Origin: Patescibacteria group bacterium
GTDB lineage: Bacteria > Patescibacteriota > WWE3 > UBA101185 > UBA10185
Assembly (NCBI GenBank): GCA_049322215.1
Contig: JBMORU010000001.1
Coordinates: 516,023 to 580,022 of the forward strand
Direction of reading: 5' to 3'
DNA: 64,000 nucleotides
In this document: positions 8,599 through 14,793 of the stretch, one piece after another
How the letters are laid out: each line of letters opens with the position of its first letter
How positions within the stretch are numbered: position 1 is the stretch's first letter
Notes under the pieces: model-generated
What the model was told of the DNA's origin: nothing
The model's database searches: none
The model's input: the letters and a program-made list of their open reading frames with translations, nothing else
Made by a program: the position numbers and the translations under genes

Positions 8599-9042
8599 AT
8601 GGCAAAAAAGCAAGAAATACAAGAAAAAACAAGTAAATCCCCAAAGAAAGGTTTTATAAGCGGAACTGGAAGAAGAAAAACTGCAGTTGCACGTGTTTTC
8701 CTATATCAAGACAAAGGTGATATAACAATAAATGATATGCCAATTGACGATTACTTTCCTACTGAAAATGAAGCACTAAAATGGAAGAAGCCATTTCACT
8801 TAGTTGGAATATCTCATCCTGAATCAAAATACTGGGCATCTATTAAAGTTCAAGGCTCTGGAAAATCCGCTCAATTAGATGCAGTAGTACATGGTATATC
8901 AAGAGCATTAGCTACTATTAACGAAGAATATCGTAAAATACTAAGTACTCAGGGCTTCTTAACTAGAGATTCTAGAATGGTTGAAAGAAAGAAATACTGG
9001 TTAAGGAAAGCTAGAAAAGCACCTCAATACTCAAAACGTTAA
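8599..9042 (+). CDS. rpsI: 30S ribosomal protein S9
   Basis: It has a ...GTGRRKTAVARV... core and the S9 C-terminal ...YSKR. Confidence 0.9.
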   Translation: MAKKQEIQEKTSKSPKKGFISGTGRRKTAVARVFLYQDKGDITINDMPIDDYFPTENEALKWKKPFHLVGISHPESKYWASIKVQGSGKSAQLDAVVHGISRALATINEEYRKILSTQGFLTRDSRMVERKKYWLRKARKAPQYSKR

Positions 9043-9335
9043 ATACTTTTTGGCGTCTCAAGCTCAGTAACAATATATTGAAGTTCACTCAAAGCAGTGG
9101 TTATTTGCTGAATTTTTTGCCGAAGCTTATTTTCGCTTGATTCAGTTAAACTTAAAAAAGAAACATTGTAAGCTTCAGCAATGCTATTTAACACCTTTAG
9201 TGGGGGAATGCACTTTCCGGTTTCGTAGGCTGAAATAGTTTTTCCTGAAACTCCAATTTTGTTGCCAAATCTTTCTTGCGACAGTTTATACTTATCTCTA
9301 ATTTCTTTAATTTTAAATCCTATATTTTTTTCCAT
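9039..9335 (-). CDS. XRE-family helix-turn-helix transcriptional regulator
   Basis: It is 98 aa with a classic HTH_3 segment (LSQERFGNKIGVSGKTISAYETGK). It converges on rpsI with a 4-nt overlap and diverges from radC. Confidence 0.75.
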   Translation of the reverse strand: MEKNIGFKIKEIRDKYKLSQERFGNKIGVSGKTISAYETGKCIPPLKVLNSIAEAYNVSFLSLTESSENKLRQKIQQITTALSELQYIVTELETPKSI

Positions 9336-9361
9336 AATCCAGCTTAATTAGAAATTAACAC

Positions 9362-9381
9362 ATTGCAATATGCATTGCAAT
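9362..9381. promoter_or_regulatory. Two copies of the 8-bp perfect palindrome ATTGCAAT separated by 4 bp (ATTGCAAT-ATGC-ATTGCAAT) in the divergent XRE/radC intergenic region
   Basis: It is read directly: 9362-9369 and 9374-9381. It is a candidate operator for the adjacent HTH repressor, or -35-like elements of the divergent promoters. Confidence 0.4.
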
Positions 9382-9389
9382 AATTTAAA

Positions 9390-10094
9390 TTGTTAAGTAT
9401 GCCAATGTCAGACACATTACTAAATGATGAGTTTCCTAGAGAAAAACTACTTAAGTTTGGTGCTGACCATTTGACTGATGCAGAATTAATCGCCGTTTTG
9501 CTTAGGGTTGGAGGTCGCGACACTTCATCAGTTTCGCTGGCAAGGTCTCTAATACGCCATTATGGAAATTTAAATGCTCTTTTAAATGTTCCGCTGCTTG
9601 AGTTGATAAATTATAAAAATATTGGTGTCGCAAAAGCTTGCACACTAAAAGCAACGTTTGAGTTGGGATTGCGTATAAATTTTAATAATACATCTCGTAA
9701 AAAGGTTAAAACTCCTAGAGATGTATTCAATGTTTTAAAGAAAGATTTTTTTTCAAAAAATCGAGAGCACTTTTTTTTATTATCAGTTGATTCGAGAAAC
9801 AGATTAATTTCTAAAGATTTATTAGCAATAGGAACTTTAAATGAAACCGTGGCACACCCAAGAGAGGTTTTTAAACGCGCGTTACAGGTAAGTGCTGTTG
9901 CCATAATAGTTGCTCACAACCACCCATCAGGAGATGTTACCCCAAGTCAGGAAGATATTGATTTAACAAATGTTCTAGCTAAGTCTGGAAAGCTTCTTGG
10001 AATACCGTTAATGGATCATGTAATTATTTCTCAAAATGAATATGTAAGTATACGGAGTTTGGGTCTTTTCACTATAGATAAAGTAGAAATTTAG
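9390..10094 (+). CDS. radC: RadC-like JAB/MPN domain protein (UPF0758)
   Basis: The N-terminus has a helix-hairpin-helix region (ELIAVLLRVGGRD...). The C-terminus has the JAMM motif HNHPSGDVTPSQEDIDLT. Confidence 0.85.
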   Translation: MLSMPMSDTLLNDEFPREKLLKFGADHLTDAELIAVLLRVGGRDTSSVSLARSLIRHYGNLNALLNVPLLELINYKNIGVAKACTLKATFELGLRINFNNTSRKKVKTPRDVFNVLKKDFFSKNREHFFLLSVDSRNRLISKDLLAIGTLNETVAHPREVFKRALQVSAVAIIVAHNHPSGDVTPSQEDIDLTNVLAKSGKLLGIPLMDHVIISQNEYVSIRSLGLFTIDKVEI

Positions 10095-10110: not shown

Positions 10111-10689
10111 ATGAAAAAATTTATTGCAAGTTATGGTTTGATACTAACCATTCTTATCACGACTTTAGGTGTTTCTGCAGCAGCTTTCACTGACTCTGCA
10201 AAAATACTTGGTGCAACTTTTAGTGTTGGTAGTTCTGATCTAAAGTTGTTAATGGACTTAGCAGGTTCTTTAGATGCTTCAAATCTTTATGACGAACTAG
10301 TCGGGCCTACATTTGAGAATATAAGTCCGAATTGGGAAACTAACTATTTGGTGAAGCTTTACAATAATTCACCTGAAGATGTGGTGCTTTTTACAGTGGC
10401 AGATTACGAAACGGCTAACGACCCTAATGAATTGCGTCAGGATATAAATGTAGAACCGTTTCTTTGGGATGACAACAATAATAATGGGGTTTTAGATGCC
10501 GGTGAGCTTGGAAATTCCTTAGGTGTAAAAACCATAGTTAAGTGGAAAACAGAGGGGTTTGATTTAGGCCTTTTGCAGTCAGGAGAGGTATTACCTATGG
10601 TTTTTAAGTTTAGTACAGGTTCTGTATCTGCTGCTAAGCAAGGGAGTACGGCAACATTTGATTTTTTAGTTGAGTCAGTTAGTTTATAA
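10111..10689 (+). CDS. TasA/camelysin-like secreted protein with SipW-cognate class signal peptide
   Basis: An N-terminal signal ends in ...TLGVSAAAFTDSA, comparable to the TasA-type AAFND cleavage region. The protein is about 190 aa and sits immediately upstream of a SipW-type signal peptidase. Confidence 0.55.
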   Translation: MKKFIASYGLILTILITTLGVSAAAFTDSAKILGATFSVGSSDLKLLMDLAGSLDASNLYDELVGPTFENISPNWETNYLVKLYNNSPEDVVLFTVADYETANDPNELRQDINVEPFLWDDNNNNGVLDAGELGNSLGVKTIVKWKTEGFDLGLLQSGEVLPMVFKFSTGSVSAAKQGSTATFDFLVESVSL

Positions 10690-10713: not shown

Positions 10714-11169
10714 GTGTTAAACATAATGAAATATTTAATTATTTTTGTTTCGTTCGTTTTGTTTGCAGCTGTAGGTATTTATAAGTTTGATACTTTTGTA
10801 ATAAATGGTGCATCTATGGAGCCAACTTTGCAAAAAGGAGACTTAATAGTGACAAAAATCTATTCTACCTACGATGTTGATGATGTTGTTACATATAATC
10901 TATATTCAGGTACAAGTTTAATTACGCATCGCATTGTAAGTAAAGAAGTGTTTAAGGACAAAAATTTGTATAAAACTAAAGGTGATAACAATAATGTTGA
11001 GGATCCGTTTTATATTGCTGACTATGAAATTGTTGGTAAGGTGCTATTTGCTTTTCCATACTTGGGAGCACTAATTACGTTTATTTTCAAACCTCTAACA
11101 TTATTAGTTTTATTCTATGTTCCTTTAGGGATAATATTAGGTTATAAGTTAGCTGAAATTAAAGGCTAA
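10714..11169 (+). CDS. sipW: signal peptidase I, SipW-like (archaeal/ER type, S26B)
   Basis: It has an N-terminal TM segment, then GASMEPTL (catalytic Ser box), ..THRIV (His box) and GDNN. It lacks the bacterial LepB Lys box. Confidence 0.75.
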   Translation: MLNIMKYLIIFVSFVLFAAVGIYKFDTFVINGASMEPTLQKGDLIVTKIYSTYDVDDVVTYNLYSGTSLITHRIVSKEVFKDKNLYKTKGDNNNVEDPFYIADYEIVGKVLFAFPYLGALITFIFKPLTLLVLFYVPLGIILGYKLAEIKG

Positions 11170-11201: not shown

Positions 11202-13778
11202 ATGCTTACTGTGCCCAAAGAGATATATGACTTCATAAACTGGTATTTTGTTAAAGCTCCGCGTGTGCTTTTTGTGACCTTGCTTAGAATACTGCGTCAC
11301 ACAAACAATGAGGTGGCTTTTACACTTAATATTCGTCTACTTTTCACCCCTTTGTTTGGTGACTATACCAAAGTGGGTAGAATAATAGGCTTCTTTTTTA
11401 GAATTATTTGGATGTTAGTTGGTTCGGTAGCGCTTGTTTTCATATCTATTTTACTTTTTATCGCTCCAATTATATGGTTTTTAGCCCCTTTATTATTGGC
11501 TATTTATATTAAGCTGTGGATTATACCTTTAATTGTAATGCTTTTTGTTGCACGAGAGTATTTTACTTTTGGTACCCCCTTAAGGCGTGTATACCAAGTG
11601 AATCCTTCAAATCCGTTGGAGTGTTTTAGACCTGAAGTTAAGGATTATATTGAACAGTTGAAAACAGTGGGTAGTGAAGCCTTGCCTTTATTTTTAAAGC
11701 ATAAATCAAGTCAGTATATATTGAAAAGAACCGAGCTCTTAAAGCAGGATTTTCTTTTAGCTTTTGTGGAACTTTATTCAAGGTTGCAAAATGTGCCTTT
11801 AGTAGAAACATCATATGGACTGGCAAAAAAATATGAAACCAGGTATGTAGAAATGGAGCATTTACTTTTAGCAGTTTTCTTAAGTGTTCCTAATATTGAT
11901 ACTGTTCTATCTTCTTATGGGTCTTCTCTTGAGGACTTTGAAGACACAATAGAATGGGTAGTTTCAAAAAGAGAAGAGTTATCAAAGCTATATGTTTGGC
12001 AAGAAGACTATGAAATGCCTCTTATGGGAGGTACAAATCGTGGTTTAACAGGTCGGGTTACTAAATACCTTGATCAGTATTCTGATGACTACACCGAAAT
12101 GGCCAAATATGGACGTTTCAAAAAAGTAGTTGGCAGAGATGCGGAAATATCAGAAGTTGCTGAAATACTGAGTAGTTCTAATAGTAACGTATTAATTATA
12201 GGTGAACCCGGAAGCGGAAAGTCTTCTATTATGAAAGGTATTGCCGATAGAGTTATAAGAGGAACGGATTTTGAGTCTTTAAGGTTTCGTCGTATTGTTG
12301 CTCTTAATACAGGCCTTCTTATAGCGGGTGCATCTACCTCGGGTGATTTAGCAGGCAGAATGGCGAACATTATGGAAGATGTTGAAGGATCTGGTGGCAT
12401 AATTTTGTTTATTGACGAAATTCACACTTTGTTAGCAGGTTCTGGGCAAAGCAGTGCCGAAATGTCTAGTGCCTTTTCTGTTTTAGAGCCACGCTTAGCG
12501 GCAGGAAAAAATCAATTTGTTGGTGCTACTTCAAATGAAAACTACAGAAAGTATATAGAGCCTAATGGTGCTTTTGCACGCTTATTTGAAATTGTTCGTT
12601 TAGCCGAAGCATCTGAAGAAGATACCCTAGAAATTTTAAAAGTAAATGCAGATGAAATTGAAAAAGAAACAGGTGTAATAGTTTCGTACCCCGCATTAAG
12701 AAAAATTATTCAGCTGTCTAAAAAACTAATACATGAGCGGGTATTTCCCGATAAAGCTTTGGACATTTTAAATAGAAGTGTTGCTTCTTTTGGGAGAACT
12801 AAGGGTTATTTAACGGTTGATGATGTGGCCGATGAAGTATCTAAAATAACAAGTGTTCCTGTTTCGGCAATTTCTCAAGATGAATCTTCTACACTGCTAA
12901 ACATTGAAGACAAAATGAGGCAAATGGTGGTTGGACAAGACCAAGCCATAGTTCAAATAGGGCGCTCATTAAAGCGCGCACGAGTAGGTATAAGAGATGA
13001 ATCTAAGCCAATAGCCAGCTTTTTATTTGTAGGCACTACAGGTGTAGGGAAAACTCAAACTGCTAAAGCGTTGGCAAAAAACTATTTTGGTACAAATAAT
13101 ACGATGATTCGTTTAGATATGAGTGAATATCAACAACCAGATAGCATTAACCGCTTAATTGGGGATCCTTCAGGCAGTTCTAAAGGTCAGTTAACTGATG
13201 CTGTTCGTTCTAAGCCTTTTTCTCTTATTTTGCTTGATGAAATTGAGAAAGCTTATTCCAATGTTTTACTTACATTTTTACAAGTATTGGATGATGGTCG
13301 TTTAACGGATTCTGTGGGTCATGTTGTTGATTTTACCAATTCTATAATAATTGCTACCAGTAATACAGGCACGCGAGCAATACAAGAAATTTCTGATAAG
13401 GGTGGTACTTTCGAAGAAATGCAAGATGCTGCAATGCGTGAGGTTAGAGCTAAGTTTGCTCCCGAGTTTTTAAATCGTTTTACTGGAATTATTGTATTTA
13501 GGCCATTAACTATTCCAACAGTGCGTGCAATTGCAGACATACTTTTGGAAGGTGTAAGACGCTTAGCTGATGAAAAGAAAGTTAAAATTTCGTTTTCACA
13601 GCAGTTAATAGACGAGCTAGTACGTAGAGGATTTAACCCAAGCTGGGGTGCGCGTCCGTTAGCACGTGTTATAGAAGATACTGTAGAAACATACTTAGCC
13701 ACAAAAATTTTACAAGGTGAAATTAAAATGGGTGACACAGTAGAACTAGGTATGGAAGTTTTTGAAGAAAGCTATTAA
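11202..13778 (+). CDS. membrane-anchored Clp/Hsp100-family double AAA+ ATPase
   Basis: The first roughly 125 aa contain 2-3 predicted TM helices. A Clp_N-like repeat (EHLLLAVFL) and [11 protein letters not shown] follow. AAA1 has Walker A GEPGSGKS and Walker [12 protein letters not shown]2 has Walker [16 protein letters not shown] and Walker [11 protein letters not shown], then sensor TSNTG. No IGF/LGF ClpP-docking tripeptide is seen. Confidence 0.8.
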
Positions 13779-13791
13779 ACTGCTTTTTAAT

Positions 13792-14793
13792 ATGGAAGAA
13801 GCACATCAGAAATTAGCCGAACTAGGTGAAAAATTAAATATAAAGTCCAAGCGTTTGAAAATAGATGAACTTAAAAAAGAAATGAGTACTGAAGAAGTCT
13901 GGAAAAATTGGGAACAGGGGCAAAAATTGTCCCAAGACTTGGCAGCCCTAGAAAGAGAAGTAACGGATTATGAGATGCTTGAGCTGCTGCTGGATGACGA
14001 TGCTCTAGATGAATTTGAAAAAGAATTTAAGAAACTAGAGCTAAGTACATTCTTATCTGAAAGCTATGATAAAAATGCTGCGTTGCTTTCTATTCATGCG
14101 GGACAAGGCGGAACTGAAGCAATGGATTGGACAGAAATGCTAATGCGTATGTACGCACGGTATGCAGAAAAGAAAGGTTGGAAAGTTGAAGAAGTTACAC
14201 GGGTTAAAGGAGATGAAGCAGGTCTTAAATCCGTGACACTAGAGCTTAAAGGTAAGTATGCCTACGGCTATTTAAAAAATGAGGCGGGTGCTCATAGGTT
14301 GGTGCGTCAGTCACCTTTCAATTCTGATAACTTACGCCAAACATCTTTTTCCTTAGTAGAAGTTTTACCCGTTGTGTCAGATGATATCGAAATAGAAATA
14401 AAAGATGATGACATTGAATTTGAAGCACATAGGTCAGGAGGATCTGGTGGGCAGAACGTTAATAAGGTTTCCACGGCAGTACGAATTAAGCATAAACCCA
14501 CAGGTATAGTAGTAGAATGTCAGGAAGAGCGAACACAGGGAAAAAACAGAGAAAAAGCTATGGCATCACTTAAAGCTCAGTTGTTTGCACTTGAAGTTCA
14601 GCGTATAGAAGACGAAAAGAAAAAGCTTAAAGGGACATATAAGGTTCCTGGTTGGGGCAATCAAATTAGAAATTATGTACTACACCCGTATAAACTTGTT
14701 AAAGATTTACGAACACAAGTAGAAAGTGTAAATCCAGACTCGGTGCTAGATGGTAATTTGGATGAGTTTATAAGCGAAGAAATAAAGCTTTAA
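13792..14793 (+). CDS. prfB: peptide chain release factor 2
   Basis: It has SPF (RF2-specific) and GGQ motifs and is a single uninterrupted ORF. The ATG at 13792 is chosen over the in-frame upstream TTG at 13762, which overlaps the clp gene. Confidence 0.85.

Follow-up and report, generated by a model that had tools for sequence, protein, structure and literature searches.

Hsp100 proteins are textbook threading machines, in which the pore-loop tyrosines, the M-domain and the ClpP loop define the role of each subfamily, and the tyrosine of the second ring (D2) is required for substrate translocation by both ClpB and ClpA. Here, a relative of these proteins was analyzed that is encoded in a window of 64,000 nucleotides (nt), the whole stretch of DNA under analysis, from a Patescibacteria group bacterium of the WWE3 lineage (GenBank assembly GCA_049322215.1, contig JBMORU010000001.1, positions 516,023 to 580,022). 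The gene at window positions 11202-13778 (+ strand) consists of a single ATG-started open reading frame (ORF) of 858 amino acids (aa), and its product was shown to be a class-I Clp/Hsp100 protein with the part order N-module, hydrophobic anchor, Clp N-domain, conserved linker, D1 and D2. What is new about this protein is that a known ATPase superfamily is combined with an obligate membrane module and with the loss of function-defining elements. Coordinates without a label refer to the window; labels of the form L0xx denote related contigs or loci that were fetched for comparison.

ClpA of Escherichia coli (PDB 1ksf and 1r6b) shares with the WWE3 protein (hereafter, the query) the arrangement of N-domain, D1, D2 and D2-small without an M-domain and a Walker A spacing of about 280 residues, but it is soluble and possesses an IGL ClpP-docking loop and KYR and GYVG pore loops. 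The best sequence match was ClpB/Hsp104 (Thermus thermophilus ClpB, 1qvr; 444 bits overall and about 240 bits for D2), which resembles the query in the missing ClpP loop, in an equal distance from sensor-1 to the Arg finger and in its independence of a protease, whereas its coiled-coil M-domain for Hsp70 coupling, its essential pore-loop tyrosines and its cytosolic location have no counterpart in the query, which is predicted to be membrane-anchored. ClpC/ClpC1 with MecA (B. subtilis, S. aureus and M. tuberculosis) gave the best sequence match to D1 (212 bits) and the best structural match to the body and the N-domain of the query, but differs from it in a short M-domain, a VGF-type ClpP loop, both pore-loop tyrosines, solubility and regulation by adaptors.

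Torsins, which are Clp/Hsp100-related and associated with the membrane by an N-terminal hydrophobic domain, have no aromatic pore loops, were judged unlikely to thread and have small membrane cofactors (PMC5425593). Their likeness to the query concerns a possible working mode and not family membership, and is limited to membrane association and the lost aromatic pore loops: Torsins are eukaryotic proteins of the endoplasmic reticulum lumen with one AAA+ module and an Arg finger supplied by LAP1 or LULL1, whereas the query has two rings, its own D2 Arg finger (R759) and an unrelated N-terminal module. In FtsH and Msp1/ATAD1, as predicted for the query, an AAA+ ring is tethered to the cytoplasmic membrane face by one or more N-terminal transmembrane segments. 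FtsH and Msp1/ATAD1 are members of the classical AAA clade and not of Hsp100, with a single ring and aromatic pore loops; that they work by threading is proven, and FtsH carries a protease domain in addition. HSP101 of the Plasmodium PTEX is, like the query, a ClpB-type Hsp100 without a ClpP loop at a membrane, and its N-domain was among the fold matches (4irf and 4iod). HSP101 itself is a soluble protein with an M-domain and with tyrosines in its pore loops; it threads cargo in the unfolded state and docks on a pore that a different protein forms. Taken together, the query is most like ClpA by layout, ClpB (D2) and ClpC (D1) by sequence, the Torsins by presumed working logic, and FtsH or Msp1 by placement.

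Sequences of this kind were already public, with automatic annotation only. No paper combining WWE3 with Clp, or linking Patescibacteria to such a protein, was found in a literature search, in which matches of Patescibacteria with ClpB, ClpC or ClpP were incidental, and Clp is not mentioned in the paper on the RAAC2 WWE3 genome (PMC3812714).

Domain architecture and the N-terminal module

According to a first-pass annotation, made from the sequence of the window alone, the gene encodes a membrane-tethered Clp/Hsp100 double-AAA+ unfoldase. Every motif quoted there was recovered at its place, in agreement with Pfam, namely EHLLLAVFL (aa 219-227), VVGRDAEI (aa 309-316), Walker A GEPGSGKS (aa 334-341) and Walker B ILFIDEIH (aa 401-408) of D1, and Walker A GTTGVGKT (aa 611-618), Walker B (aa 675-684), sensor-1 N721, the Arg finger R759 and sensor-2 GARP (aa 816-819) of D2. 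D1 also contains sensor-1 T443 and, at the place of ERRF in ClpC, FARLF (R460). The whole protein was matched by the Pfam models AAA (aa 330-454), AAA_lid_9 (aa 471-561), AAA_2 (aa 602-761, E 6.6e-49) and ClpB_D2-small (aa 772-848, E 2.1e-19). The AlphaFold2 (AF2) model of the full-length protein had a predicted local distance difference test (pLDDT) value of 86 and a predicted template-modeling (pTM) score of 0.75, and that of aa 1-300 had values of 85.7 and 0.76, respectively; the D1-D2 body of the full-length model was superposed on ClpC, ClpB, ClpC1 and ClpA protomers with a template-modeling (TM) score of about 0.8. By domain content and fold, the protein is a member of class-I Clp/Hsp100. 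Its NCBIfam scores were below the curated cut-offs for ClpA (TIGR02639, 487 versus 993 bits), ClpB (TIGR03346, 548 versus 1232 bits), ClpV/TssH (443 versus 885 bits), ClpG (435 versus 1900 bits) and ClpK (434 versus 1900 bits). It falls outside ClpA/ClpC by the ClpP loop and the curated score, outside ClpB by the M-domain and the curated score, and outside the threading Hsp100 proteins by the pore-loop tyrosines.

The putatively cytoplasmic part of the N-module (aa 1-60) was modeled by AF2 as two amphipathic helices (aa 6-38 and aa 40-48), which are followed by the conserved loop F48-x-P50-L-F-G-D54-Y-T-x-x-G59-R60; W14, N35, F48, P50, D54, G59 and R60 are invariant or near-invariant in the family. 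The family motif of this region, F-x-P-L-[FY]-G-D-x-[ST]-x-x-G-R-x-x-G-F-x-x-R followed by the hydrophobic anchor, is present in the query, which is the first sequence of the profile. Aa 1-60 were placed in the cytoplasm because of their excess of K/R over D/E (family means 7.4 and 2.5, respectively), and aa 120-145 are also K/R-rich (mean 5.3). Neither the N-module nor its stand-alone homologues were matched by any model of Pfam or NCBIfam. The only IGF tripeptide of the protein lies at aa 62-64 (window 11385-11393), within the conserved GR-x-IGF-x-x-R of the N-module; it is probably unrelated to ClpP docking and may mislead motif scans.

The strongly hydrophobic helices announced for the N-terminal region are indeed there: the quoted strings correspond to aa 61-88 and aa 89-117, Kyte-Doolittle values of 19-mers were at least 1.6 throughout aa 60-119 (peak, 2.88), and the region belongs to the same ORF in 41 complete species-representative ORFs. 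The anchor starts with G63-F-x-x-R67 and continues with arm 1 (about aa 68-88), the turn P89-x-x-W92-x-x-x-P96, whose center contains no charged residue in any family member, and arm 2 (about aa 97-119). On a Hessa-type scale, the first predicted transmembrane segment (aa 68-86) gave -3.4 kcal/mol; the insertion free energy of arm 1 was below 0 in 94% of the family, and that of arm 2 was marginal, with a median of +1.3 kcal/mol. No match to the anchor part was found in a fold search of the PDB. Because the ATPase must be cytoplasmic, the anchor would form an N-in/C-in hairpin, either transmembrane or monotopic, although this topology is uncertain.

For the helical domain at aa 138-260 of the aa 1-300 model, the only PDB fold matches obtained with Foldseek were the N-domains of Clp, Hsp104 and HSP101 (about 140 aligned columns, probability about 1, target-normalized TM score 0.55-0.6, E about 0.1). 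The Pfam model Clp_N scored 15 bits, below its cut-off of 20.7, so that membership is evident from the fold and sub-threshold by sequence, and the alignment with ClpC (3pxg) begins only at aa 201 of the query. Mean identity to the query was 32% in this domain and 30% in the hydrophobic arms, compared with 49% in the cytoplasmic part of the N-module, 51% in D1 and 55% in the linker. The last of these, between N-domain and D1, is unusually conserved for an Hsp100. It has the invariant pattern W266-Q-E-D-Y...G277...G281..G284-R285-x-T287..L290...D296 and includes a non-helical stretch at aa 261-287 (window 11982-12062; WQEDY...GG-x-G-[KR]-G-[ML]-T-G-R-V-T-P). The linker had a pLDDT of 82-89 in the full-length model, and residues 281-300 were below 50 in the isolated N-terminal model; since an ordered prediction was seen only in the presence of the whole protein, the models suggest that the linker packs on D1.

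The identical protein (P0001) was found on a 1.11-Mb contig of an NCBI Patescibacteria metagenome-assembled genome (MAG) and on an independent Logan contig. A protein search yielded over 100 homologues, about 850 aa long, with 48-57% identity at 95-100% coverage, most of which are labeled candidate division WWE3 and bear the pipeline names 'ClpC', 'ClpA' or 'AAA family ATPase'. When one genome per species was scanned, 54 loci were obtained (the complete genome CP006914.1 is among them), comprising 41 complete fused ORFs (834-897 aa), 10 ORFs cut by contig ends, one read-through and two stand-alone modules. These 41 fused ORFs, together with the two assemblies encoding the identical protein, rule out the frameshift or assembly merging of ORFs that had been named as a possible refutation; the layout is also common to more than 120 full-length homologues. 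In the read-through locus (L012 5998-9636, CAYOCN010000001.1), the Clp-like ORF continues in frame into prfB to give 1212 aa, which may reflect either an error in sequencing or a true fusion. Several MAGs labeled 'uncultured Candidatus Saccharibacteria' show WWE3-type synteny and are possibly mislabeled.

When 1.84 billion cluster representatives were searched with a profile of the module (aa 1-132), 490 clusters were matched at E<=1e-3, 95 of them at E<=1e-10. Among the top 149 matches, the query's own representative excluded, 23 were full-length fused proteins and 98 were of 160 aa or less, most of the top matches being 105-135 aa long; the rest were of intermediate length and may be fragments. 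The named stand-alone modules are from candidate division Kazan, Parcubacteria, Minisyncoccia or 'Patescibacteria group', and the named fused representatives are from Patescibacteria, except for one labeled only 'bacterium'. A stand-alone module of about 110 aa adjoined a Clp-like ATPase gene in 5/5 cases. In four of these (Kazan L005/L006, Parcubacteria L007, Minisyncoccia L062 and a JGI contig, L063), a Clp-like double-AAA gene of 817-868 aa follows the small gene at a distance of 2-16 nt, and in the fifth (L060) the Clp-like gene directly follows the small gene. The module profile gave no match to the N-termini of the split-system ATPases, where only generic hydrophobic segments were seen; a second copy of the module inside these ATPases was therefore rejected. 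Just upstream of the small-module gene of the Kazan locus, there are two ORFs for LAGLIDADG homing endonucleases (L005 3053-5237).

The N-terminal region of about 130 aa was thus shown, at the level of sequence comparison, to be a distinct conserved module, putatively of the membrane, and a separate evolutionary unit. Because the module and the ATPase are fused in some lineages and encoded by neighboring genes in other lineages of the Candidate Phyla Radiation (CPR), the two stand in a Rosetta-stone relation, which indicates that the module and the pore-loop-less ATPase are obligate, dedicated partners, whether fused or split. The earlier description as a transmembrane fusion holds in that the N-terminal anchor is in the same ORF, but the fused part is not a generic segment; it is a distinct module that forms a separate gene in other CPR lineages.

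Pore loops, motor sites and docking elements of the two rings

In HMMER alignments, the canonical K-Y-R of D1 pore-loop-1 is replaced by S-T-S, 'AGTKYRGEFEDR' of B. subtilis ClpC being paired with the query loop, and a four-residue deletion in D2 pore-loop-1 relative to T. thermophilus ClpB takes out the G-Y-V-G aromatic paddle. No aromatic residue was present at the D1 loop in 116 of 120 family members, or in the 15-residue D2 loop region in 109 of the 120; in the 11 D2 exceptions, the aromatic residue is located at a non-canonical G[YF]LT (9/11) or elsewhere in the region (2/11). None of the 23 more divergent fused cluster representatives contained KYR, GYVG or a Tyr at the canonical D1 position, and none of the four split-system ATPases contained KYR or GYVG. 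The first-pass statement that all ClpA/ClpC/ClpB hallmarks are present consequently applies to the motifs quoted, and not to the aromatic pore-loop-1 residues, which are missing from both rings.

The ATPase sites are retained. The D2 Walker A (G-x4-GKT), the Walker B DE, N721, R759 and the sensor-2 R818 were invariant in the 120 sequences, and the D2 catalytic residues were also kept in all divergent and split relatives examined. D1 is catalytically intact in the WWE3-type clade, and most of the 120 sequences have DE[IVM]H as the Walker B of this ring. D1 of the split-system ATPases is degenerate, its Walker B being reduced to GN, PH, ED or QD and its Arg finger gone, and in the Parcubacteria ATPase the Walker A Lys of D1 is changed to Arg. 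Because D1 is degenerate in the split systems while D2 is fully intact, D2 is, by its pattern of conservation, the putative conserved motor of the whole family.

The absence of a ClpP-docking tripeptide after sensor-1 of the second AAA+ module, as first proposed, was confirmed: [ILVM]G[FLM] was found between sensor-1 and FAPEFLNR in 0/120 family members, the query included, and the segment from sensor-1 to the Arg finger was exactly 40 aa in 117/120, which is the length in ClpB, and aligned gap-free with T. thermophilus ClpB. Apart from the IGF of the N-module, such a tripeptide occurs in the query only as LGM at aa 849. A hidden ClpP loop is ruled out by the ClpB alignment and the motif scan of 120 members. 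A search of the 64-kb window and of 770 kb of related loci with an E. coli ClpP probe gave no ClpP-like sequence, and no second Clp-like gene was found there. The hydropathy, the family-wide anchor and the 0/120 tripeptide count support the proposal that the protein is membrane-tethered and would be independent of ClpP.

The ClpA-like Walker A spacing that had been pointed out, and with it the lack of an M-domain, also held. The Walker A lysines are 277 residues apart, and the absence of an M-domain follows from the alignment of E. coli ClpA (1ksf) in one unbroken stretch (query 289-851 to ClpA 168-735), whereas ClpB and ClpC aligned in two pieces; the M-domain of B. subtilis ClpC has no counterpart in the query, in which about 12 residues separate 'DILNRS' from 'VDDVADEV'. 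ClpA ancestry is unlikely as the cause, as both ClpB and ClpC match the sequence better than ClpA does, and the M-domain therefore seems to have been lost secondarily. With it, ClpB-style coupling to Hsp70 and ClpC-style M-domain regulation would be lost as well. Collectively, the alignments show a family that has lost the M-domain, the ClpP-docking tripeptide and the aromatic pore-loop-1 residue of both rings.

Interpretation of the function

The explanation favored here, to which a probability of about 0.5 is assigned, is that the protein is a non-threading, Torsin-like membrane ATPase working with its membrane module; the descriptive half of this composite reading is near-certain, and the mechanistic half is weak. 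An Hsp100-type hexamer would be tethered on the cytoplasmic side of the membrane, where both ends of the anchor would also lie, as judged from the sequence and the predicted structure. Processive threading of polypeptides would most likely be absent, because both rings lack an aromatic paddle. Turnover of ATP, for the most part in D2, would probably drive conformational changes of the ring, and the conserved, rigid linker together with the Clp N-domain would pass these motions on to the membrane module, in order to remodel, hold, release or gate membrane-embedded or membrane-proximal clients, or the oligomeric state of the module itself. Such a machine would work without ClpP and without Hsp70.

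Several points weigh against this explanation. Loss of the aromatic residues is no strict proof of lost translocation, since non-canonical loops could grip a substrate, and nine family members carry a Tyr or Phe two or three residues downstream (G[YF]LT). The retained Clp N-domain and Hsp100 body would fit a classical protein-handling role, and the analogy with Torsins is partial in view of the two rings and the family's own D2 Arg finger. Arm 2 of the anchor is only marginally hydrophobic, and AF2 monomer models show aa 57-122 as one helix, leaving the hairpin turn unsupported. That the protein forms hexamers, inserts into the membrane and hydrolyzes ATP is in each case predicted from the sequence, and the gene context gave neither a client nor a conserved third partner.

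The first-pass annotation had favored a membrane-tethered, protease-independent Hsp100 unfoldase that could act on membrane or secreted substrates. Such an unfoldase or extractase would thread membrane or secretory proteins through its central pore in the manner of Msp1 or of FtsH without proteolysis, possibly serving the secreted-protein/SipW pair encoded upstream. With a complete Hsp100 body, a Clp N-domain, an intact D2, a D1 intact in the WWE3-type clade, a membrane anchor and no ClpP loop, the protein has much of what such an extractase would need, and a secreted protein is encoded upstream at tight gene spacing in 40/47 WWE3-type loci, with SecA or SecY nearby in some loci. The term 'unfoldase' is nevertheless made doubtful by the loss of the pore-loop-1 aromatics from both rings throughout the family. 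The neighborhood is a poor hint to secreted substrates, as SipW intervenes in only 13/47 loci, the secreted neighbor is absent from the divergent fused and all split members, and the synteny takes in the unrelated RadC and prfB; this reading is accordingly considered doubtful. The membrane modules might instead form an ATP-coupled channel (at least 12 helices per hexamer), for which the ring would be the motor or gate in moving a nucleic acid, a lipid-linked intermediate or another polymer. CPR bacteria have very small genomes and depend on uptake from hosts. The gene is retained in very small genomes (WWE3 genome features, PMC3812714), the module is an obligate, dedicated partner, and the loops that stand in place of the paddles are small, polar or Lys-containing; but no basic loop residue is conserved across the whole family, and the module has no transporter-like fold match and no supporting gene context, so that this purely speculative idea is unlikely.

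Docking of ClpP through a non-canonical element, for example the IGF at aa 62-64, would be compatible with the occurrence of IGF at this place of the N-module in 76/120 members and of [IMVL]G[FLV] in most of the others. It is, however, very improbable, given that this tripeptide lies in a predicted membrane-interface helix on the face opposite D2 and not in a flexible loop under D2, that all 120 members have a canonical site of ClpB length without a tripeptide, and that no clpP was found in the window or in the 770 kb of related loci searched. A frameshift or assembly join, or a pseudo-chaperone decaying under relaxed selection, might be suspected from the fact that the module is truly a separate gene in some CPR lineages and that D1 is degenerate there. 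This can practically be dismissed: the ORF runs without a break in 41 complete examples of different species and in both of the independent assemblies, neither frequent disruptions of the gene nor a dN/dS near 1 were seen, and a full-length identity of 48-57%, invariant ATPase residues, a conserved N-module and linker, and a family spanning hundreds of 50%-identity clusters all speak against decay. An extension of the favored, non-threading explanation is put forward tentatively, in which a two-component machine found across CPR lineages would combine a module of about 110-130 aa, so far found only in CPR, with a non-threading Hsp100 ring, and would spend ATP on the remodeling or gating of a membrane component; the machine would correspond, in bacteria, to Torsin and its cofactor or would be a new transporter motor, possibly with an essential CPR-specific function.

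In genomes of about 1 Mb, a large conserved family has dropped three defining Hsp100 features, kept the ATPase and gained a membrane module, a combination that points to a different use of an Hsp100 ring at the membrane. The family may provide a prokaryotic system in which to study the working mode of Clp-like ATPases without pore loops, Torsins among them. Because the M-domain, ClpP loop, pore-loop tyrosines and solubility of ClpC are not shared, the automatic names 'ClpC' and 'Clp protease ATP-binding subunit' are misleading for this family, and 'ClpC' is not justified. Metabolic or proteostasis reconstructions of CPR bacteria that count these proteins as Clp protease components are probably wrong.

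Feature coordinates and gene neighborhood

Table 1. Coordinates of the Clp-like gene, its parts and the ATPase genes of split systems (window positions unless a locus is given)
Feature	Position (nt)	Strand	Basis
Predicted membrane-anchored Clp/Hsp100-like double-AAA+ ATPase, 858 aa	11202..13778 (stop codon included)	+	ORF, Pfam, AF2
N-module, putative cytoplasmic part, aa 1-60	11202..11381	+	conserved residues, AF2 helices, charge
Hydrophobic, predicted membrane anchor, aa 61-119	11382..11558	+	Kyte-Doolittle, Hessa-type scale
Clp N-terminal domain, diverged, aa ~135-262	11604..11987	+	Foldseek; EHLLLAVFL at 11856-11882
N-domain-to-D1 linker, aa 263-300	11988..12101	+	invariant columns, identity, full-length model
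D1 AAA+ module and lid, aa ~301-560	12102..12881	+	Pfam AAA, AAA_lid_9; ClpC D1 alignment
D1 Walker A	12201..12224	+	motif position
D1 pore-loop-1 position, aa 375-382, AGASTSGD	12324..12347	+	HMMER alignment to B. subtilis ClpC
D1 Walker B	12402..12425	+	motif position
D2 AAA+ module and D2-small, aa ~561-858	12882..13775	+	Pfam AAA_2, ClpB_D2-small
D2 Walker A	13032..13055	+	
D2 pore-loop-1 position, aa 654-663	13161..13190	+	alignment to T. thermophilus ClpB
D2 Walker B	13224..13253	+	
Sensor-1 (SN) to FAPEFLNR segment, aa 720-759	13359..13478	+	site of ClpP-docking loop (IGF/IGL/VGF) in ClpA, ClpC, ClpX
FAPEFLNR (Arg finger)	13455..13478	+	
Sensor-2 GARP	13644..13658	+	
Split-system ATPase gene, Kazan	L005 6353-8806		
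Split-system ATPase gene, Parcubacteria	L007 6344-8950		
Split-system ATPase gene, Minisyncoccia	L062 5336-7831		
Split-system ATPase gene, JGI contig	L063 4154-6640		

In WWE3-type loci, the gene is part of a block with the order S13-S11-S4-rpoA-L17-L13-S9, a helix-turn-helix (HTH) gene on the opposite strand, RadC, a secreted protein of about 195 aa, SipW in some cases, the Clp-like gene and prfB. The secreted protein was found upstream of the Clp-like gene in 40/47 loci, with SipW between the two in 13/47, RadC was in the neighborhood in 36/47, and prfB was immediately downstream in 36/42. In the window, prfB starts with the ATG at 13792, 13 nt past the stop of the Clp-like gene, and no terminator-like site was found on the + strand.

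A TasA-like/SipW secretion pair had been reported directly upstream of the Clp-like gene. SipW was verified, since TIGR02228, the model of SipW/archaeal-type signal peptidases, matched the product of 10714-11169 with 88.9 bits (cut-off, 51.85), whereas the TasA-like label was not confirmed by any hidden Markov model: the 192-aa protein encoded at 10111-10689 (+ strand) has a SipW-type-looking signal peptide (MKKFIASYGLILTILITTLGVSAAAFTDSA...; …GVSAAAFTDSA…), and no TasA, camelysin or other model of Pfam or NCBIfam was matched even at E<=10. Distant fused members have other neighbors, for example endonuclease IV, SecA or RelA, and the secreted-protein/SipW block is absent both from these and from all five split systems. 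The block includes unrelated genes (RadC and prfB), and its link with the Clp-like gene is clade-level (WWE3-like) synteny, which does not point to a functional unit; beyond that level, a coupling of the Clp-like protein to the secreted-protein/SipW pair is unsupported.

A promoter and terminator scan of the window gave nothing above shuffled expectation. An XRE-type HTH gene (9039-9335, - strand) and radC (9390-10094, + strand) are divergent and located right after the L13-S9 operon, a pair that is kept in 36/47 loci, and a promoter-like site with an extended -10 was noted at 9355-9384 upstream of radC, in a scan that overall did not exceed shuffled expectation. The rest of the window contains housekeeping genes. 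At about 39200-61000 (+ strand), a same-strand run of genes for GT2, GT4, UDP-glucose dehydrogenase, two PMT-family proteins, two polysaccharide-synthase flippase-like proteins, DUF2079 and an LPG-synthase-like protein was observed, which is probably a cell-surface glycan cluster.

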